From Gekko japonicus (lineage: Eukaryota), in NCBI RefSeq assembly GCF_001447785.1, contig NW_015170318.1:83181-147166 (forward strand): DNA of 63,986 nt, written 5' to 3'. Below are positions 2,351 to 61,106 of this stretch, one piece after another. The notes below the pieces were generated by a model, which searched no databases, was not told the DNA's origin, and saw only the letters and a list, made by a program, of their open reading frames with translations. Within the stretch, counting starts at the first letter, position 1, and each line of letters starts with the position of its first letter. Both the position numbers and the translations under genes were made by a program.

Positions 2351-3110
2351 GTCTCTCTCTCTCCCCCCGTTCTCTCTCTTCCCCCCCAGTCTCTCTCTCT
2401 CCCCCCATTCTCTCTCTTCCCCCCAGTCTCTCTCTCCCCCCATTCTCTCTCTTCCCCCCCAGTCTCTCTCCCCCCCTTCTCTCTCCCCCTTCTCTCTCTT
2501 CCCCCTAGTNNNNNNNNNNNNNNNNNNNNNNNNNNNNNNNNNNNNNNNNNNNNNNNNNNNNNNNNNNNNNNNNNNNNNNNNNNNNNNNNNNNNNNNNNNN
2601 NNNNNNNNNNNNNNNNNNNNNNNNNNNNNNNNNNNNNNNNNNNNNNNNNNNNNNNNNNNNNNNNNNNNNNNNNNNNNNNNNNNNNNNNNNNNNNNNNNNN
2701 NNNNNNNNNNNNNNNNNNNNNNNNNNNNNNNNNNNNNNNNNNNNNNNNNNNNNNNNNNNNNNNNNNNNNNNNNNNNNNNNNNNNNNNNNNNNNNNNNNNN
2801 NNNNNNNNNNNNNNNNNNNNNNNNNNNNNNNNNNNNNNNNNNNNNNNNNNNNNNNNNNNNNNNNNNNNNNNNNNNNNNNNNNNNNNNNNNNNNNNNNNNN
2901 NNNNNNNNNNNNNNNNNNNNNNNNNNNNNNNNNNNNNNNNNNNNNNNNNNNNNNNNNNNNNNNNNNNNNNNNNNNNNNNNNNNNNNNNNNNNNNNNNNNN
3001 NNNNNNNNNNNNNNNNNNNNNNNNNNNNCTCTCTCCCCTGCCTTGTCTCTCTTCCCCCCCAGTCTATCTCTCTCTCTCTCTCCGAGTCCCCTCCCCGACT
3101 TTCTTCCCCC
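2351..3110. repeat. CT-rich low-complexity repeat spanning assembly gap 2510-3028
   Basis: Repeated ctctctctccccccc units on both sides of the N run. Confidence 0.9.
2510..3028. other. Assembly gap (others: 20267-20284, 33088-33148, 60768-60798)
   Basis: N runs. Confidence 0.99.
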
Positions 3111-6539: not shown

Positions 6540-9297
6540 GGGGCCTTGCGCAGCGAAGGTACGCGGCGAAGGTACGAGGCTGGCCAGATGGGGTGCTAGC
6601 TGAACAGTACCGGGTGGGACTCCACCCTGAGATTTGGGAGACCATCCTGCGGAGTGTGCACCCCATCTCCCTCAATGCATGGGTGCGGGAAGCTGCAGGT
6701 GCCAAGGCCTGCCTCCAGATGATCAAGATCAACACATCAGTCTTAAAAAAACCCCACAGGGCAGGGGGGAATGGCGGGAAAACTGAAAGCCCCTAAGCCA
6801 AAGACGGACATCAGAGGCCTTCGCATGAGACAGGGTCTCTGCCTCCATTGCAGAGAGGCGGGGCATTTCGCCGCCGAGTACCCCGGGACTGTGGGAAGGC
6901 CTGCTCTGGCTAAAGACCCAGAATGGAAGAAAGTGGACACCCTGCTGAAGAAGGGGCCGGCTAAAGCTAAGTTGCAACGAGCCCTTCAGTTCAAGGTCCT
7001 GGAAGAACACTCCAGCTCCAGCAGCACTGAGGGGGAGGAACCGGTGGGAAAAGGCCGGGACCTGCTGCGAATGATGCAGAGCAGCAGGTCCAACATCCCC
7101 GCGCCATGTACAGTGAGCAATTACCCCCTTCTCTTTTTCGTGACTGTGACAGTAATGAACCCCGATTTGGCCACGCACGTGCGGGCTCGAGCCCTTATCG
7201 ACTTGGGGTGTACCAGAGACTTGATAAGCCCCTCTTTGGTGATGGGGTTGGGGGCTCCAGTGGTGGAGCTCGCCAAGCCCATAGTATTCACCCAAATGGA
7301 TGGCTCCTCAATGAAGGAGCCGTGTAAATAGCAGACCGTGCCACTGCGGATGGGGGCGGGGGAGCATTGGGAACACCGACTGTTTTTTATCACCCCTGCC
7401 GCGAGGTTTCCCCTGGTGTCGGGGAGCCCCTGGTCACATGACCACAACCCGTATCTCTTGTGGGATGAGGGGAAGGTGCAATTCATTTCCTCAGAGACCA
7501 CAGCTGGGACTCTAACTGGGGAGTGGCCCCTCCCGATAAACTGGTGTGGGCTTATCTCGTGGAGGAGGAGTTACAGACCATTCCCCCCCCTTACCAGGAC
7601 TTGGTTCGGGTGTTTGAAGAGGAGGGGGGACGAGTTGCCCCCCCCCCAGGAATACTGACTGTGCAATTGAACTATTATCGGGGCAGAAACTCCCGAAGGG
7701 CAAGCTTTATGCCATGAGCCCGGCAGAGAGGGAGGAGCTGAGGAAGTTCATTGACAAGAGCCTTGTGTGGGGTTTCATTCACCCTGCTTCTTCTCTGTTT
7801 GCCACCCATGTATTGTTCCGGAAGAAGAAAGATGGGGGCCTTCATCTCTGTATGGATTACCGGGGCCTCACTAGGGCTTATCCCCTCCCTCTCATAAAAG
7901 ATCTGTTGGCTGAGGCCGCCAAGGGAAAGGTCTTTTCTAAGTTGGACTTGAGGGATGCATACTTCAGGGTTCGCATCAAGGAGGGGAACGAGTACAAGAT
8001 TGCCTTCAATACACCACTGGGGGAATTCGAATATAGAGTGATGCCGTTCAGCCTCCAGGGGGTGCCTGCAATGTTTATGAACGATAAATGAGGTGTTGCA
8101 CAAGCATTTGTTTAGGGGGACCCTTATTTATCTAGATGATATCTTGCTGTACTCCCCCAATGAACAATCACATGTTAAATTGGTGTGAGAGGTACTCAGA
8201 CCCTCTATAAACACAAGCTATGTGCTAAGCGGTCAAAGTGTGAGTCCCACCTGGATGAAATTGACTTTTTGAGCTATCACATCTCCCCTCAGGTTTTGAA
8301 ATGGACCCCGCAAAGGTGCACGATGTCTTGGGGTGGGAGGGGGGCCCCCACACCCATAGGCAGCTCCAATCCTTCATCGGATTCGCCAATTTTTACAGAA
8401 ATTTTATCGCTAATTTCGCCCAGGTCAGCCTCCCCCTCACAGACTTGTTAAAAACTAAGGGGAAGGGCCTGGAGAGCACCGAACCCAGTGCTCGGTGGAA
8501 CTGGACGCCTGAATGCCAGGAGGCATCAGAGAGACTTCAGACATTATTTACTTCAAAACCGGTGTTAGCGCATCCTGATGAAAATAAAAAAAATATCATT
8601 CAGGTGGACGCATCGGATGTGGCTATGGGCGAGGCCATCTTGCAAGAAGGGGGGGATGGCAAACTGCACCCCCTTGCTTATGTGTGCCGGAAATTCAGCA
8701 CCACAGACCGTAATTGGGCAGTTTGGGATAAGGACGCTGGAGCCATCCGGCTCGCCCTCTCCACTTGGAGACATTGGCTAGACGGGGTGCGGGTGCCATT
8801 TGAGGTGTGGACTGATCATAAAAACCTGAAGGTCAGTTTGGTGTAGTGGTTAAGCGTGCTGACTCTAATCTAGGAGAACCGGGTTTGATTCCCCACTCCT
8901 CCATTTGCCCCTGCTGGTGTGAACTTGGGTCAGTGACAAGCTCTGGCACAGCTGTTCCTGAAAGAGCAGTTTGTGTCAGAGTTCTCTCAGCCCCACCCAC
9001 CTCACAGGGTGTCTGTTGTGGGGAGGGGAAGGGAAATGGGTTTGTAAGCCGCTCTGAGACTCCAAGTGAAGGGCAGGATATAAATCCAATCTCTTCTCTT
9101 CTTCTTCTTCTTCTTCCTCTGCAGCCCCCACAACCTCAACGCCAAGCAACTGAGGTGTGCTGATTTCTTTTCGAAGTTCCAATTCACCTTACATCATTTT
9201 CCCAGGAAGGCGAACTCCTTAGCCGACGCTCTCTCGTGCCTCCCACAACATGATAGCCAAAGGGAAGGCGTGGTGGACTTGATATTCACCCCCGTTC
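6540..9297 (+). mobile_element. Degenerate Ty3/Gypsy (Sushi-like) LTR retrotransposon internal region: gag-PR-RT-RNase H
   Basis: Zn knuckle CLHCREAGHFAAEY; protease ALIDLGCT; RT LDLRDAYF, YRVMPF and YLDD (~8149); RNase H VDASD, TDHKNL and ADALS; many stops and frameshifts; split by a SINE at 8832-9117; no integrase or LTRs seen. Confidence 0.93.
8832..9117 (+). mobile_element. Squam3-like (MIR/Ther1-derived) tRNA SINE; other copies ~33149-33372(-), 35828-36115(+), 38220-38716(+), 40047-40325(-), 52005-52286(+), 53840-54102(-)
   Basis: A/B-box head tggtgtagtggtt...ggtttgattcc, MIR-like core acctcacagggt, (CTT)n tail; at least 7 copies in the window. Family name from recall. Confidence 0.75.
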
Positions 9298-10968: not shown

Positions 10969-11400
10969 CTACGTGGAGGAGATGTAGCGGACCGGGAGCC
11001 CTTCCTTGCAGGTGACCCGGATCCTCGTAATTTTGCTCTCCCCCTTGTACCTGCAGAGCAACTTGCCCAGGAACCTCCTGCGCCTGCAGGTGGTGATGGG
11101 GAAGAGGATTTTGCTGCGGGTGTTGCCATCCATGATCTGCCCTCTGGAGTTGCAGATGGACTTCAGCTGCTCTTCGGTGGTGTGGATGAAGGTGTTCTTC
11201 CGCTGGCAGGCCATGCCTCTGCGGCTCATCATCTGTTTGCAGTAGTGGCTGTTGCTGCCGAAGTTCATTTTGGGGTTGTCCACGTGCTTCGTCAGAAAAG
11301 TTCTGTAGGTCGTGCCTTGGCAGGGCAGCCACAGACAGGCTGCCGTTGCCAGGAGCAGGAGGCAAAGGGTGTGGCCGGAGGGACCCCCGGGAGACACCAT
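10969..11400 (-). CDS. Secreted RNase A-superfamily protein (gene 1), predicted catalytically inactive, cationic, 143 aa
   Basis: True ATG at 11400 (ORF track starts at an upstream GTG). Signal peptide ends ...LWLPCQG; FLTKH keeps His12; CQRKNTF has Lys41->Gln; LPVR has His119->Arg; 6 mature Cys. Polypyrimidine+CAG acceptor at 11431; AATAAA (-) at 10667-10672. Confidence 0.93.
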   Translation of the reverse strand: MVSPGGPSGHTLCLLLLATAACLWLPCQGTTYRTFLTKHVDNPKMNFGSNSHYCKQMMSRRGMACQRKNTFIHTTEEQLKSICNSRGQIMDGNTRSKILFPITTCRRRRFLGKLLCRYKGESKITRIRVTCKEGLPVRYISST

Positions 11401-19578: not shown

Positions 19579-20885
19579 GTTTGCACATCCTCTGGCCACG
19601 GGGTCCCCAACAGGTCCAGGCTTTCACGGGAAGCTTCCCACAGAGGACGTGTCACAACCACGCTGGGCTAATCCTTCCCCGTTTCCTGACCTGCCACTTG
19701 AACAACTACAGAAGGCCTTCTCTAACCGGCTCTTGCGACCTTCTCCTGTTGGGTACCTAAACCACCAACTGCCCTGAGTTGGGACACACAAGGAGTTCCC
19801 CGAATTAGGGGTTACAAAAAAGTGTGGTTCTTCTTTGATTAGACCCTTGGCCTACTTCTCTCTCAGTTTAGGCTCAAATGGCATGCCATCAAGAATAGCT
19901 TTCATGTGTTCCAGCACAGACCAAGGAAGACCAGGTCATGGCATGAAGGCAGGCCATGGCGAACCACCTCTGAACGTCTCTTGCCTTGAAGATCCTACCG
20001 GGTCGCCTGCCTCCACATCGCAACCCTGGACTTCCTTCAGGGCCTCCCATTCAAACACTAACCAGGGCTGACTCTGCTTGGCTTCCAGGAGCTGACAAGA
20101 CTGGCCTAGCCTGGCCCATCCAGGTCAGGGCAAATAAGTGAGCACAGTCCATAAGCAGTGTAAGAGAGAAGAGCCAGGGCTGCACTACACCCTGCAGCGG
20201 GGAAGGATTCACTGGGGTGTCTGATGAAAGGACAGGCACGGGGTGTTGAGCAGAGAGGTTCCTGAANNNNNNNNNNNNNNNNNNGGGAAAGAGAAGCTGA
20301 GTGAGTGTGAGCTAGCTCACAGCTTTTTAGCTTCCAGCTCACGGATTTCTGTCTTAGCTCAGGAAGGGATGGTTCCAGAGCAAACCAATTTATACAGTAG
20401 CCAAATCGCTCGCTCACACCTTTAATGCCAGTAGCTCACAAAGTAGCACTTTTGCTCACAAGATTCCACAGCTTAGAGGGAGCATTGCCCAACAGGCCCA
20501 TGCTTTCACGGGAAGCTTCCCACAGAGGCCGTGTCACAACCACGCTGGGCTAATCCTTCCCCATTTCCTGACCTTCCTCTTGAACAACTATAGGAAGCCT
20601 TCCCTAACCTGCTCTTGCAACCTTCTCCTGTTGGGTACCTAAACCACCAACTGACCTGAGTTGGGACACACACGGAGTTCCCCAAATTAGGGGTTACGAA
20701 AGGTGTGGTTCCTCTTTAGTAAGACCCTTGGCTTACTTCTTTCTCAGTTTAGGCTCGATTATGGCCTGTCATCGAGAATATCTTTAATTTGTTCCAGCAC
20801 AGACCAAGGAAGACCAGGGGTGTGACGTGGAGGCAGGCCATGGCGAACCACCTCTGAATGTCTCCTGCCTTGAAAAACCTACCAG
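19373..20885. repeat. Two tandem copies of a block paralogous to window start 1-1280; partial further copy ~22020-22525
   Basis: Shared cccaacaggtcc...gggttac...ttgccttgaa sequence at ~175-560, 19605-20267 and 20488-20885. Confidence 0.9.
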
Positions 20886-26932: not shown

Positions 26933-27379
26933 ATGAGGCCTTTGGGAGGCAAGTGTTGTTTCCTGCTCCTGTTGCTGGTGGCCGAATTGCTGCCCGGATC
27001 CTCCGGCGGCAACAACCCCCGCTACGAGAAGTTCCTGAACCAGCACCGGGACGATCCCAGGAGCAGTTTCCACGGCCGGTACTGTGACGGCCTGATGCGC
27101 AGCCGGGGCCTCACCAAACCCGAGTGCAAGGAAGCGAACACCTTTATCCATGGCTCCAAGAGGCGGATCCGGGCAGTGTGCGGCCAGGGGGGGGTTCCCA
27201 GCGGACAGCTGCAGCGCAGCCGGCAGCCGTTCCGGGTCACCAGCTGCACCCTGAGGGGCGGCTCCACCCGCCCGCCCTGTGAGTACAAGGAGAATACCTC
27301 GCCCAGGTACATTGTCATCGGCTGTGAAGACGGCTGGCCCGTCCATTACGATGAGAGCCAGATCGTGACCACTGTCTGA
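26933..27379 (+). CDS. Angiogenin-like secreted ribonuclease (gene 2), intact catalytic triad, 148 aa
   Basis: ATG 26933 follows acceptor-like AGs at 26905-06 and 26920-21. Signal peptide; RYEKFLNQH, CKEANTFIH, GGSTRPPC, GWPVHYDES closely parallel angiogenin motifs; 6 Cys. AATAAA 27607-27612 with GT-rich downstream element. Orthology to ANG not established. Confidence 0.96.
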   Translation: MRPLGGKCCFLLLLLVAELLPGSSGGNNPRYEKFLNQHRDDPRSSFHGRYCDGLMRSRGLTKPECKEANTFIHGSKRRIRAVCGQGGVPSGQLQRSRQPFRVTSCTLRGGSTRPPCEYKENTSPRYIVIGCEDGWPVHYDESQIVTTV

Positions 27380-32872: not shown

Positions 32873-33944
32873 AGATCACTGGGATTGGGCCAAGGGCTGC
32901 AACGAGAGTTTGAATCTTGGTGTGTCTCTGTTGACCAGGAGAGAAGACCACAGTCTGGATAAGGCCAGAGGGCGCTGCACCTTCTCTCAGAGACACATCT
33001 AGGGATTTTTCCAAAAATAGCCTTTAAGATTTTCAACATGGCAATTCCCATTCAGTGCCAGATTCCACAGCCAACAACTGAGTACACNNNNNNNNNNNNN
33101 NNNNNNNNNNNNNNNNNNNNNNNNNNNNNNNNNNNNNNNNNNNNNNNNGGCTTACAAACTCCTTTCCCTTCCCCTCCCCACAACAGACACCCTGTGAGGT
33201 GGGTGGGGCTGAGAGAACTCTGACACAAACTGCTCTTTTTCAAGGACAGCTGTGCCAGAGCTTGTGACTGACCCAAGGTCACATCAGCAGGTGCAAGTGG
33301 AGGAGTGGGGAATCAAACCCGGTTCTCCCAGATTAGAGTCCGCGCACTTAACCACTACACCAAACTGGCTCTCCAGAAGGAATGCAGCAGTACTTGGTAC
33401 ACAGGGCAAGCAAGCATCCCACCCCCAACCATTATGGCAGCATAGCTGACATTTAGTGGGTAAGAACCAGTCGTCTGACTATAAAAGTTTCAGGTTGAAA
33501 AAAGAAAGACCAGAGGCAGCCAACACACCCTCTAAGCTATGGAGACTTGTGAGCAAGAATTCTATTTGTGAGCTACTAGCATTAAAGTTGTGAGTGAGCA
33601 ATTTGACTACTGCATAAATTAGTTTGCTCTGGAGCCCTCCTTCCTGAGCTATAAGACAAGAATGGGTGAGCCGGAGGCTAAAAAACTGAGCTAGCTCACA
33701 CTCACTCAGTTTATTTATTTATTTATTTATTTGTCACATTTATATCCCACACCTAGGGTTGCCAAGTCCCCCCGGGGGGCAGGGAAACCCCCACTCAACA
33801 GGCCTGTTCCCCCCCGGTGTGGATCGGGCTGCCCGGGGGGACCCCACCCCCAAAGCGTGCGACGTGCCCGGCGTGAACACGTCACCCGTGCTGCTGATGT
33901 TATGTTAGGGCCAGGGCCAAGATATTAAGGGAGGCCCCCTAATT

Positions 33945-34920
33945 GAAAGCCTGGCGGAAGAGCTCCATTTTACAGGCCCTGCGGAACTGTACAAGGTTCT
34001 GCACGACCCTGATGTCATCCATGAGCTCATTCCACTAGTAAGGGGCCGCCACAGAGAAGGCCCTGACCCTTGTTGCAGCCAGCCTGGCTTCTTTAGGGCC
34101 CGGGAGGACCAGGCAATTTTGGGATCCCAATCTTAGTGCTCTCTGGGGAACATGTGGGGAAAGGCGGTCCCTCAGGTAAGTAGGTCCCTGACCATATAGG
34201 GCTTTAAAGGTAAGAACCAGCACCTTGAACCGAATCCGGTATGCTATAGGCAGCGAGTGCAGCAATTTTAGGGAAGCTGGATGTATTTTCCCACATAGGA
34301 AGACACAACAACAGCCTCGATGCTGCATTCTGCACCTGCCGCAGCTTCCAGATTTGAGACAAGGGCAGCCCCATGTAGAGAGCATTGCAGTAGTCCAATC
34401 TCGAGGTGACCATTGCATGGATCACTGTTGCCAGGTCATCGCGTTCGAGGAAGGGAACCAACTGCCTGATCAGCCGAAGATGGTAAAAGGCCGACTTGGC
34501 AGTGGCTGCTACCCGGGCCTCTATCGTTAAGGAGGCATCCAGGAGCACTCCCAAACTCCTAACCTCCGGCGCTGGCACTAGCGGTGCCCCATCGAAGGTC
34601 AGGAGAGGGATCCTTAACCCTGGCCCACTCTGACTCAGGCACAGGACCTCCGTCTTCGTCGGATTCCATTTCAATCGACTCAGTCTAAGCCAACCAGCCA
34701 CGGCTTTCAACGCCAGGTCCAGGTCTCCTGGACTAGAGTCTGGCTGGCTGTTCAACAACAGATACAGCTGGGTGTCATCTGCATACTGTTGACAATCCAG
34801 CCCATGCCTCCGGGCAATCTGGGCAAGGGGGCGCATATAGAGGTTAAGTAACATCGGGGAGAGCACTGCCCATTGGGGCACTCTGCATATTAGCAGGTGC
34901 CTTCTGGATAGCCGTTCCCT
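33945..34920 (-). mobile_element. L2-clade LINE RT fragment
   Basis: PQWAVLSPMLLNLYM, YADDTQLYL, TSRLDYCN, VQNAASR, RAFSVAAP; nested inside a split hAT MITE. Confidence 0.9.
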
Positions 34921-42800: not shown

Positions 42801-43176
42801 AAGGCAACGCTCAGGCTCCACTGGACTGTTTTGGATTGCTAGCTATTGGAGGGGGGGGAACGTGCAGATCTGTCCTCACAGAGGAGGGAGAGCTTGTACC
42901 TGAACAAAACTTGGTCTTAAAGGTGCCACTGGACTGATTTGGACCAGGGGGGCCGGGGGGAGCTCTGCAGCTTACCTGGCTCCTTCTTGCTCTGACTGAG
43001 GGCTGCTGGGAGAAGGGGGTGGGGCTTGTTGCATGTGCCCGCCCCCTGGGCTCTTTACTGCCGGAGCTCCGCTCCTGTGCGCTCCTGCAGGAAATGACCC
43101 CTGGTCTCCCTTGAGGCTGAGATATAGATTTCAAATTTCTTTTAATTTTCCGTAGTCTCCAACACCCCCCACCAGG

Positions 43177-43608
43177 ATGTCCCCCAAGATCTCCTTCTGG
43201 CTGCTGCTGCGTTTGGCCGTCCTTCTGGCAGCTCTTCTGGTACAGTCCAGCGAAGGGGCCACCTACCAGGATTTCAGAAACAGGCACATAGATCATCCGA
43301 AAACCAGAGCCGCCAACAACAACGCCTACTGCAACCTCATGATGAGGCGGAGAGGCATGATGAATCGCACTTGCAAGCCCACCAACACGTTCATCAACAA
43401 CAGCCCCAACCACATCCAGCATGTCTGCCGCGGGGGAGGGCGCCGGGTGAATAGGAATATTTTCGAAAGCAGAAGGCGTTTCAGTGTCATCACCTGCCGC
43501 AGTAGAGGCCGTTTCCCTAACTGCCAATATGTCGGCAGAAGACAGAGCAAGAGAATCCGTGTGGGCTGCGTCCGCAGCCTGCCCGTCCACTTTGACAGGC
43601 TCGTCTAG
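43177..43608 (+). CDS. Highly cationic, Arg-rich secreted RNase A-family protein (gene 3), intact triad, 143 aa
   Basis: Signal peptide to ...SSEG; FRNRH, CKPTNTF, LPVHFD; 6 Cys; acceptor ttttccgtAG at 43154-43155; hand count 23 Arg in about 116 mature residues. Confidence 0.96.
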   Translation: MSPKISFWLLLRLAVLLAALLVQSSEGATYQDFRNRHIDHPKTRAANNNAYCNLMMRRRGMMNRTCKPTNTFINNSPNHIQHVCRGGGRRVNRNIFESRRRFSVITCRSRGRFPNCQYVGRRQSKRIRVGCVRSLPVHFDRLV

Positions 43609-55440: not shown

Positions 55441-55875
55441 ATGGTCTTTCTCTCCTTACCGCTCCCGTTCTCCGTCCTCTTCCTGGTTTCCTTGGTGGAC
55501 AAGAGCCAAGCTACTTACCAGACTTTCCTGAGGGAACACGTCGACCCCATGCGGATTATAATCAACCCCCATTTCTACTGTCAGGAGAAGATGAAAGCCC
55601 AGGGCCTGACGAGTCCCACCTGTACGGAAAAGAACACCTTCATCCACGCCAGCAACATCCAAGTCAAAACTATCTGTGGTGTCGGAGGAATGCATTCCAG
55701 CAACACCTCTTCGGACAGCCTGGCCAGCTACATAATCACGACCTGCCATTCCAGTGGGGGCTCCCCCCCAGACGACTGCAAATACAGAGGCCAAGGCGAG
55801 CGCCGGAGGATTCGGGTGACCTGCTCCAGAAGGGTCCCTGTGGGCATCATAAAAATCCTCACTACCTGGCCCTGA
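55441..55875 (+). CDS. Secreted RNase A-superfamily protein (gene 4), predicted catalytically inactive, 144 aa
   Basis: Strong Kozak gccATGg at 55441 after a long polypyrimidine tract and AG at 55425-26. FLREH keeps His12; CTEKNTF has Lys41->Thr; VPVG has His119->Gly; 6 Cys. Confidence 0.92.
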   Translation: MVFLSLPLPFSVLFLVSLVDKSQATYQTFLREHVDPMRIIINPHFYCQEKMKAQGLTSPTCTEKNTFIHASNIQVKTICGVGGMHSSNTSSDSLASYIITTCHSSGGSPPDDCKYRGQGERRRIRVTCSRRVPVGIIKILTTWP

Positions 55876-55961: not shown

Positions 55962-57820
55962 TAAATTTGTTTATTGATTATTTATTTGTGGTATTTTTAT
56001 CCCGCCCTCCCCACAAGCAGGCTCGGGGCAGCTTAAATTACCGTATTTTCCAGCGTATAAGACGACTGGGCGTATAAGACGACCCCCAACTTTTCCAGTT
56101 AAAATATAGAGTTTGGGATATACTTGTTTTGTTTTTCGGTTGTTTGCTACGCTCAAAGCGCAGCATGTACTACTGAAAGCGATAGAAAGACCAGAGTACC
56201 GTATTTACCGGGGTATAAGACGACCCCCCATTTCTGAGAAGATTTCCCTGGGTTAAAAAGTAGTCTTATACACCGGAAAATACAGTACTTGGCACAGTGT
56301 ACCGAGTGCATAGAAAACAGCGAAAACCATTGAAAACAAACAAACCGATTTACAATTAAAGTGCTCACCGTGTTATTAAATCAAGATGGCGTACCATACG
56401 GTGTGGCATCCAAGCACCCAGCTCTGTGGTCTCCCAGCATATCAAGCTAATATGGCTCACTTTCAACGACGGCCAGCCCAACGCCACCGATGTTAATAGT
56501 GGACGTTAATGGTAGTGGTGGGTGGCTCCTAATTGAAGACCTGGTGGAAGAGCTCCGTCTTGCAGGCCCTGTGGAATTGCAGAAGATCCCCCAGGGCGCT
56601 GATCTCCTCCGGGAGCTCATTCCACCAGTAAGGAGCCGCCACAGAAAAGGCCCTGGCCCTGGTGGCAGCGAGCCCAGCCTCCTTGGGGCCTGGGATGACT
56701 AGTCGATGTTGCGACCCCAACCGTAGTGCTCTCTGGGGTATATATGGGGAAAGACGGTCCCTCGGGTATGTCGGACCCTGGCCATATAGGGCTTTAAAGG
56801 TATGTACCAGCACCTTGAAGCGAATCCGGTATGCTATTGGCAGTCAGTGCAGTGCCTTCAGCACAGGCCGAATATGCTCCCGTCTAGGGATACACATCAG
56901 CAGCCTGGCCGCAGCATTCTGCACTAGCTGCAGCCTCCGGATTTGGGACAGGGGCAGCCCCATGTAGAGAGTGTTGCAGTAGTCTAATCTTGAGGTGACC
57001 ATCGCATGGATCACTGTAGCCAGGTCGTCGGCCAGGTCGTCGCGAACGAGGTACGGGGGCAACTGCCGAACCAGCCGAAGATGGTAAAAGGCCGACTTAG
57101 CAGTGGCTGCAACCTGGGCCTCCATCGTCAATGAGGGATCCAGGAGCACTCCCAAGCTCCTAACCTCTGACGCAGGCACCAATGGTGCCCCATCGAAGGC
57201 CGGGAATGGGAGCCCAAGCCCCGAGCCGCCCCGACTCAGGCACAGGACCTCCGTCTTTGCCGGATTTAAGCTTCAGCCAACTCAGCCTGAGCCAACCAGC
57301 CATGACGTGCAATGCCCAGTCCAGATCTTCCGGTCTGGAGCCCGACTGGCCGCCCAACATCAGAGAGAGCTGAGTGTCATCAGCGTATTGATGACACCCC
57401 AACCCATACCTCCAGGCTATCTGGGTAAGGGGGCGCATATAGATGTTAAAGAGCATCGGGGACAGCACCGCCCCCTGAGGCACTCCGCACTCAAGCGAGT
57501 GCCTCCGGGACTGCTGTTCCCCTAGCACCACCCTTTGTCCCCGACCTCGGAGAAAGGAAGCAAGCCATTGCAAGGCAAGCCCCTGTATCCCCACGTTGGC
57601 AAGGCGGCGGGTCAGCAACTGGTGGTCAACCATGTCAAACGTGTCCGACAGAACTAACAACAACAGTGCTGCAGCGCCTTGATCCAGATGTCTCCGGAGG
57701 TCGTCAGTCAAGGCGACCAGTGCAGTCTCCGTCCCATATTCCGGGTGAAAGCCAGACTGGAAAGGGTCTAAGACGGAAGCGTCATCCAGAAAGCCCTGTA
57801 GCTGTATCACCACCACCCTC
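55962..57820 (-). mobile_element. 5'-truncated L2-clade LINE (RT and 3' tail)
   Basis: DPFQSGF, TETAL, GVPQGAVLSP, YADDTQL, SRLDYCN; AT-rich tail at ~55962-56030; interrupted by a Tigger-like MITE. Confidence 0.9.
56041..56285. mobile_element. Tc1/mariner-Tigger-like MITE
   Basis: TA|CCGTATTTTCC...GGAAAATACAG|TA; internal gtataagacgac repeats. Confidence 0.75.
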
Positions 57821-59331: not shown

Positions 59332-61106
59332 GTCTGATCAACATTAACAATGCGCTTATTAACTGGGGTAACCAATAGAACGCCCGGTGGCCATTAGTTT
59401 CCCGCCTGTCTTGCTAAGCTTCCGATGCTAGCCGTCTAAGGCCCTTTGGCCGCTTCTTGCCTGAAAACAATAAAACTCAGTAAAATAATCAAGGTTAAAA
59501 CTCACGGCTCAAAAAGCTTTTTTGAGCTTTAGTAGGAACCCCCCCCTCCCTGAGAAATATTTTTGTATTTATTGTAAAGATCAAGTTGACTCAGTTATCC
59601 ATATCCGTTTTAATTGCCCCTGTTATAATTCATTTCATAACCAATATATTCCTCCCTGGACTAACCATCTACAGAACATTTCAGAACAGAAACTAAAGAT
59701 TTTATTGTCAGGCAAGATTTTAAAAAATCGCACATGTGATTTAGTCATATTTATGCAGTTATAGATTACTTATAAAATACTTTGATGTACGGCTCGCAGG
59801 CTGTTAAGTTACAGGGAAAGGATTTTGATAATGTTTTCCCCCTGAACAGCAAAACGTCGCTACGTGTTTGCTTCTAACAAAGTTTGAGTTCAGGGGCAAG
59901 GTATGAGCTTTTCTGCGCACGCACACTTCCTCAGATACACTGAAATGGAAGTCAAGAGTCCATATATATAGGCAGAGATCGAATAGCAAATTAGCATACA
60001 ACATATTGAAGACGTTTTAACAGATGCAAAGACCAAACAGGAATAACAGGCTACATTTATATTGTCACCATTTCTTTGGATTTAATTAGGGGTGGGGAAA
60101 CACAGTGAAGTAAATAAACATATTAAAATAGGAGACTAATATGTAAATGTATCCTTATTTGTGGAGTGCTAAGAGTAATTAACTGAGATCCTGTTGTTAC
60201 GCCCCATTCCTCTCCTCTCAAGCATGGAGGTAAATCTTACACATAATATTCTCAAGTAAGTCCCAATCTGTTCAATATGACTTCCCCAATGTTAGTGTGC
60301 ATAGGACAGCTGCCTAAATCTGCATCCACTACCATTATTACTGCAAACCTGTATACCTCCCAGACTAGTAGGAGAAACAGCATCTTTTCCAAGGCAGGAA
60401 CATTTTGGAGCTGCTGGAAAACCGTCTTCCCATTCTGCTGCCTTTAATATAGCACCATATTCCCCCTAGAAATGCATTCCCCACAAACAAGATCCTACTA
60501 TATAGCAGAAGGTCCCAGTTCGCTCTGCAATTTTCCTTTTGCTTCTTTGATTTCAACTTAATCCATTGCCTTCTCTTGGGGCTGGTTGGTTAATCAAAGG
60601 TTAATTATCACCTCCTAGAGCCTCAGCGGTGGCTGTGACTTGTGGTACTTTACAGTCCACACAGTTATGAAATAATGATCACGGTGTTTTCTCAAGTGAG
60701 CAGCGGCTTCGACTGTCTACAAAGCGTGAGACGGGACTTAAGACGCACACACGCGCCTCTCTTTCCCNNNNNNNNNNNNNNNNNNNNNNNNNNNNNNNCC
60801 CTAAGGAAACAACTGGTTCATAAACACCCACGGAGACAACAGGAAGTAACTGATCAGGCTAGAAGGAGAAGGGAAGAAATGTTTCCAAGACAACAGGTTT
60901 GCTAAGCCTCAGTACGGCACTGACCATCCACAGTTTACAATCCAATAAAAATTCAATCACAGCTGTAAAGTGCTCCAGTTTCAACACCGACTTCCGTGAA
61001 AGTAAAACCAGACAAAGTTGACACCAATCAGGCCTTTTAAAAAACCCCAAGATTATACAATGGAAGGTAGCTGTAGAAAAGGACAACAGTCCAGTAGAGC
61101 CTTAAA

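Follow-up and report, generated by a model that had tools for sequence, protein, structure and literature searches.

The gecko Gekko japonicus encodes a strongly cationic ribonuclease whose richness in arginine appears, from the relatives that we compared, to be inherited within a squamate clade, on an already cationic reptile background, rather than being peculiar to the gecko gene. The gene lies in the window, that is, the whole stretch of 63,986 nucleotides that was analysed. On balance, we think that the protein is probably, if by a modest measure, a secreted cationic host-defence RNase that would permeabilise microbial envelopes via its C-terminal Arg residues, largely without catalysis. 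It is a database-annotated but unstudied cationic, non-mammalian RNase A. What the present analysis adds is the squamate-wide Arg-rich clade and the location of the charge, on the half of the fold opposite to the active region of ECP (human RNase 3).

The product of the open reading frame at 43177-43608 (forward strand; 143 aa, ATG start, TAG stop) is a canonical RNase A superfamily protein (PF00074; E=1.2e-26, 93.9 bits with the cut-off at 23.1), and NCBI, UniRef and nr already contain a protein identical to it. All four paralogues in the window have, upstream of the ATG, a pyrimidine tract that ends in AG. This fits a coding region in one exon preceded by an intron in the 5' UTR, the layout typical of the RNase A family. 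We placed signal-peptide cleavage after Gly27 because of an S-x-G pattern at -3/-1 and a hydrophobic core (Kyte-Doolittle 2.66); this glycine is invariant in 12 of 12 aligned rows. The features of the gene are as follows.

43136..43155, forward strand: candidate splice acceptor in the 5' UTR, a pyrimidine tract ending in TAG, seen in the sequence
43177..43608, forward strand: sole coding exon of a secreted RNase A, with 143 aa and a stop (open reading frame; PF00074; identical database protein)
43177..43257, forward strand: predicted signal peptide, residues 1-27 (hydrophobic core; S-x-G; G27)
43258..43605, forward strand: mature RNase domain, 116 aa, six Cys (composition; AF2 pLDDT 97.5; TM 0.95 to 2ZPO)
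43285..43287, forward strand: catalytic His37 (RNase A His12), preceded by an Arg that replaces the usual Gln11 (alignment)
43339..43356, forward strand: MMRRRG at the end of helix 2, residues 55-60, homologous to angiogenin 29-IMRRRGL-35 and family-wide
43363..43371, forward strand: NRT sequon, residues 63-65, restricted to two Gekko proteins in the clade rows that we examined
43372..43392, forward strand: CKPTNTF signature with catalytic Lys67 (Lys41) and B1-site Thr71 (Thr45) (alignment)
43393..43605, forward strand: beta-sheet half, mature 46-116, which holds the excess charge with 16 Arg and net +15 (charge count)
43396..43404, forward strand: NNS sequon, residues 74-76, at the RNase A His48 position, absent from the original prediction
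43588..43599, forward strand: His138-Phe-Asp-Arg (His119, Phe120, Asp121 and an Arg at the Ala122 position) (alignment)

The mature chain contains 23 Arg, 3 Lys, 3 Asp, 1 Glu, 5 His and 6 Cys, for a net charge of +22. The original prediction had counted 23 Arg and 3 Lys against 4 acidic residues in about 116 mature residues, and our recount gives the same; the pI, which it had suggested calculating, comes to 11.82. Its descriptive statements are all correct, including an intact triad (H37, K67 and H138 align with RNase A H12, K41 and H119) and the NRT sequon. Members of the RNase A family are reported to have 6-8 conserved Cys, a signal peptide and a mass of 13-15 kDa (PMC12602997); the gecko RNase has six Cys, a hydrophobic N-terminus and a mass of 13.8 kDa.

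Four RNase A genes are present in the window, at 43177-43608 and at the three positions below; a tblastn search of the window with the four proteins found no additional convincing copy.

10969..11400, reverse strand: paralogue A, an RNase A with 14 Arg and 10 Lys, net +18, in which the Lys41 position holds Gln and the His119 position Arg
26933..27379, forward strand: paralogue B, an RNase A with triad intact, net +8, beside mammalian angiogenins (unstarred support)
55441..55875, forward strand: paralogue D, an RNase A, net +7, in which the Lys41 position holds Thr and the His119 position Gly

Paralogues A and D are predicted to be catalytically dead. The reading frame of A is intact, and another Gekko japonicus protein 75% identical to it (XP_015273520.1) also carries the Gln but keeps the His; the two sit on a very long branch and are a candidate pair of non-catalytic cationic RNases. 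Paralogue D likewise has a long branch and keeps all six Cys. Paralogue B groups with a sea-krait protein and may be a squamate counterpart of angiogenin. Retroelement reverse-transcriptase pieces lie among the RNase genes (four of the five open reading frames scanned). Fragmented retroelement frames at 6771-8846 (forward), which match reverse transcriptase and RT-RNase H in Pfam, resemble the remnant of an LTR retrotransposon, and further RT fragments lie at 34204-34854 and 57160-57633 (both reverse). Upstream of the four paralogues, the shared non-coding sequence consisted of dispersed repeat-like matches, in which no first exon or promoter was recognised. Assembly gaps (N runs at 2510-3028, 20267-20284, 33088-33148 and 60768-60798) leave the RNase genes unaffected.

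To place the gecko RNase among its relatives, we used two homologue searches, with 14 and 160 matches (the best 120 of the 160 were used, and the 8000 best-sharing candidates were scored); a count of matches at E <= 0.001 among 1.8 billion representatives gave 606. Of 129 proteins, 14 were omitted (the window's own, 10 without a name and 3 redundant cluster members), and the 115 named proteins with the four from the window make up 119 rows, a set biased towards query-like sequences that holds no eosinophil RNases, RNase 7 or chicken A-2. In a maximum-likelihood tree of 116 rows and 118 columns (three short turtle rows dropped, ECP not included, bootstrap not fully settled), the gecko RNase falls within a squamate-only clade of 20 rows with support 95/97. 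The members are geckos, lacertids, an amphisbaenian, a skink, a tegu and an elapid. They have a median of 20.5 Arg and a maximum of 29, and 18 of the 20 have at least 16.

The original description of the protein as extremely Arg-rich needs a frame of reference. It holds against mammals, where none of 28 rows has at least 19 Arg, and fails against reptiles, where this number is attained by 15 of 33 squamate rows and 22 of 51 turtle rows; one of four bird rows attains it too. Turtle RNases in the set reach 24-25 Arg. By net charge the gecko RNase is tied fourth to sixth of the 119 rows, among the matches listed, below proteins of Heteronotia (29 Arg, +27), Sphaerodactylus (+25) and Eublepharis (+23), and one sea-turtle RNase equals it. 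By squared-change reconstruction, the root of the clade is assigned about 22 Arg, a weakly supported node joining the turtles about 17 and the line towards mammals about 13. Net +15 or more, taken as a state, requires the tree to have 16 changes, which makes charge a labile trait; within the clade, high charge has been retained in geckos, lacertids, an amphisbaenian and a snake. Arg or Lys occupies mature positions 72, 74, 81, 85, 94, 99, 101 and 114 in 16-18 of the 19 clade relatives, and this conservation suggests selection rather than drift.

The closest named relatives are known from automatic annotation only. They include squamate 'ribonuclease pancreatic-like' predictions from Heteronotia binoei (XP_060112383.1), Euleptes europaea (XP_056719010.1), Lacerta agilis (XP_033026108.1) and Gekko kuhli (KAL8176482.1), which are 66-92% identical to the gecko RNase and share its triad and C-terminal Arg clusters. 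Those in the tree have 20-29 Arg; the G. kuhli protein, compared pairwise only, has 23 Arg and 92% identity. Two members of the Arg-rich clade, from Tiliqua (P0051) and Salvator (P0064), are down to 11 and 9 Arg. The Tiliqua skink protein has Lys (10) in place of the lost Arg, which provides a natural comparison of Arg with Lys, as between ECP and RNase 7. Elsewhere in the tree, a small turtle clade from Gopherus (P0052) and Pelusios (P0081) consists of acidic RNases, net -3 and -5, with the triad intact; turtle paralogues are otherwise cationic.

How might such a protein work? Its polycationic surface would bind anionic microbial envelopes (LPS, teichoic acids, anionic lipids), which would then be permeabilised through the C-terminal Arg clusters, largely independently of catalysis, and the retained active site would cut RNA with a predicted guanine preference at B2. 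This mode would resemble that of chicken leukocyte RNase A-2 or RNase 7, which use charge clusters, and differ from that of ECP, which relies on an N-terminal aggregation patch and agglutination. A cationic host-defence role is reasonable given family precedent, and the original interpretation, an antimicrobial RNase of granulocytes, heterophils or skin, is partly supported, such sites of expression being putative. The gecko RNase has 23 Arg against 19 in human RNase 3, and paralogue A, cationic but lacking two catalytic residues, is consistent with a catalysis-independent role in the cluster. The chicken leukocyte RNases A-1 (PDB 4PER chain B) and A-2 (RSFR) are sauropsid proteins with six Cys, like the gecko RNase. 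A-1 shares with it a TYQDF N-terminus and an RVRVGC strand, but has about 10 Arg by a by-eye count, against 23. The activity of A-2 reportedly maps to C-terminal cationic segments, according to work by Nitto in 2006; a search of the open-access literature for domain mapping of A-2 found nothing relevant. Both chicken RNases are reported from granulocytes, and A-2, which we liken to the gecko RNase from its described properties, is reported to kill E. coli and S. aureus (PMC7597696). The known bactericidal RNases are described as having high pI (PMC5852591). Charge alone is nevertheless insufficient, since the ECP mutant I13A is reported to lose agglutination, leakage and killing altogether while its Arg are retained (PMC3486885), and mouse Ear2 is described as showing little activity (PMC12602997).

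The alternative that survives best is that the protein is mainly an RNA-degrading enzyme, whether digestive, scavenging extracellular RNA or acting on double-stranded RNA and viruses, with an Arg surface that aids RNA or glycosaminoglycan binding. We regard this as unlikely, though far from negligible. The other clade rows have an intact triad in 17 of 19 cases (a fragment being one of the two exceptions); catalysis is therefore under selection and could be the chief task. The gecko RNase also keeps the equivalents of RNase A Asn44, Thr45, Asn71, Phe120 and Asp121. The position of Ala122 is Arg in 15 of the 19 clade relatives, a replacement that, in fish and turtle RNases, has been associated with a preference for guanine at B2 (PMC6794472), and we predict an active, pyrimidine-specific enzyme with a UpG bias. 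The RNase of the iguana, the one reptile RNase that we found reported as tested, is described as pancreatic, highly active and not antimicrobial, and antiviral action by RNases is reported to require catalysis (PMC12602997). Against this, the gecko RNase is much more highly charged than the pancreatic-like mammalian rows (+3 to +9), and Lys7, Gln11, His48 and Glu111 of RNase A are replaced by D, R, N and V, unlike in an optimised RNase 1. The Arg at the Gln11 position (43282-43284, forward) has Arg or Lys as its counterpart in 15 of the 19 clade relatives; Gln11 is kept in 23 of 28 mammalian rows. A role in venom was also considered. A Toxicofera preprint reports no orthologous ribonuclease in its salivary or venom gland data (bioRxiv 10.1101/006031), and those genes may lie outside the clade.

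The predicted structure bears on this alternative and the next. In place of an initial model of poor quality (pLDDT 66), whose 12-sequence alignment had included the signal peptide, we used an AlphaFold model from an 87-sequence alignment with pLDDT 97.5. Its C-terminus is modelled as a strand up to residue 115 and ends HFDRLV, with Arg at the position of the angiogenin Gln117, which favours an enzyme and speaks against an angiogenin-type C-terminus. The top structural match in Foldseek is the green turtle egg-white RNase 2ZPO (TM 0.95, 41% identity), and angiogenins occupy most of the top ranks after it. VIA-align gives Z 21.8 against 2ZPO (rmsd 1.2, 116 aligned, 41% identity) and Z 19.1 against mouse RNase 1. 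The turtle protein shares six Cys, an MMQRRGM segment and the Asp-Arg after His119 with the gecko RNase, but has far fewer Arg (about 12-13 by a by-eye count) and keeps Gln11 and His48.

An angiogenin-like trophic factor, which would enter cells and nucleoli via MMRRRG and act in vessel growth, wound healing or tail regeneration, seems improbable. Angiogenin (RNase 5) and the gecko RNase share six Cys and an MRRRG segment, with 32-35% identity and a TM of about 0.86, and chicken A-2 is described as angiogenic ex vivo (PMC7597696). The nuclear localisation signal of angiogenin is reported to be 29-IMRRRGL-35, with 31-RRR-33 critical (PMC4221194), and the original prediction likened MMRRRG to it. 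The likeness is real in that MMRRRGM contains the RRR, yet it is not diagnostic: R-R-G occurs at this site in 85 of the 119 rows and the full RRR in just 4 of the 19 clade relatives, from which it follows that the motif reflects family ancestry, and we rejected it as an angiogenin-specific sign. The receptor loop of angiogenin, given as 60-NKNGNPHREN-68 (PMC4221194), is absent, the gecko RNase having GGGRRVNRN there, and its charge is far higher. In the tree the gecko RNase stands apart from the mammalian angiogenins, on deep branches that are weak (37/97); it is paralogue B that adjoins them (93/94, unstarred). As for the glycosylation motifs, NRT was rejected as a meaningful conserved feature, being found in none of the 19 other clade rows of the tree and present in G. 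kuhli. The NNS site has a sequon in 8 of the 19 clade relatives, plus one shifted by one residue; if the site is partly buried, we take its use to be doubtful.

Human ECP, EDN and RNase 7 have eight Cys; they share the RNase A fold with the gecko RNase and are strongly cationic, but belong to a separate mammalian lineage, EDN and RNase 7 having 28-29% identity to it. ECP has the same bias for Arg over Lys (19 Arg, 1 Lys, pI 10.8), and the gecko RNase, at pI 11.8 and 23 Arg, attains the Arg content and pI of ECP (about 10.8 or more). A true mimic of ECP, with an N-terminal aggregation patch, agglutination and membrane lysis, is nonetheless very improbable. Mature 1-45 has a net charge of only +7, near the medians of the clade (+5, equal to that of the mammalian rows) and of turtles (+6); medians across the family span +5 to +6.5. 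The net charge of mature 46-116 is +15, against medians of +14 for the clade, +9 for turtles and +4 for mammals. The N-terminus lacks a hydrophobic patch, the best 7-residue Kyte-Doolittle window in 1-20 scoring -1.27 (hydropathy serving as a proxy for aggregation). The protein has six Cys and no Trp, so Trp35 of the ECP type is unmatched. EDN (Z 13.7, rmsd 1.9, 106 aligned, 28% identity) is structurally farther from the gecko model than is the turtle RNase; RNase 7 gives Z 12.2 (rmsd 1.9, 105 aligned), and ECP is absent from the representative chains listed. The main antimicrobial region of ECP, by comparison, is reported to be the N-terminal 1-45, which includes a sequence that binds LPS and is prone to aggregation (PMC9515509). 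Nor does the gecko RNase descend from the primate EDN/ECP duplication, given its squamate-only clade and 28% identity to EDN, and ECP is reported to have gained Arg after that duplication (PMC3845642), so the two charges have independent origins. Fish RNases with 15-17 Arg also exist. The original proposal of convergence on ECP therefore stands as to overall composition and independent origin, but what was taken for convergence is an inherited clade trait with its charge elsewhere (46-116 versus 1-45). The likeness would seem to be one of composition only, not of architecture.

That the Arg-richness is a functionally meaningless by-product of GC-biased substitution, as a GC3 of 0.74 and a GC content of about 50% for the window might suggest, is scarcely credible, since paralogues of GC3 0.89, 0.85 and 0.72 carry 14, 15 and 9 Arg, 13 of the 23 Arg codons are AGA or AGG, G+A+P is not elevated (16 versus 11-23), the Arg sites are conserved within the squamate clade, and shuffles of bases within codon positions give a mean of 15.5 Arg and reach at least 23 in only 23 of 5000. 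The Arg enrichment is real and no GC artefact; by the binomial, 23 Arg has p = 0.002 when the 28 mammalian rows supply the median and p = 0.08 when the turtle rows do.

Returning to host defence, which we continue to favour, its wider implications depend on the clade as a whole. More tentatively, and with somewhat less than even confidence, we suggest that squamates may possess an old, conserved lineage of hyper-cationic RNases, richer in Arg than ECP, whose bactericidal surface would lie in the beta-sheet half and have arisen independently of mammals. If so, this would be the first class of antimicrobial RNases shown in reptiles, and an adjoining gecko paralogue would have dropped catalysis yet stayed cationic. 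Such a finding would be no surprise to a specialist, as cationic RNases arose in fish, birds, bats and primates. Reptile RNases, though, are barely characterised: in the open-access literature we found no functional study of squamate or turtle cationic RNases, and RNases have no occurrences in a 2014 review of reptile antimicrobial peptides. Should members of the clade kill bacteria, they would bridge the bactericidal RNases of fish and chicken and would offer a natural comparison of N-terminal (ECP) with C-terminal cationic designs. They would also support host defence as a recurrent role of the RNase A family.
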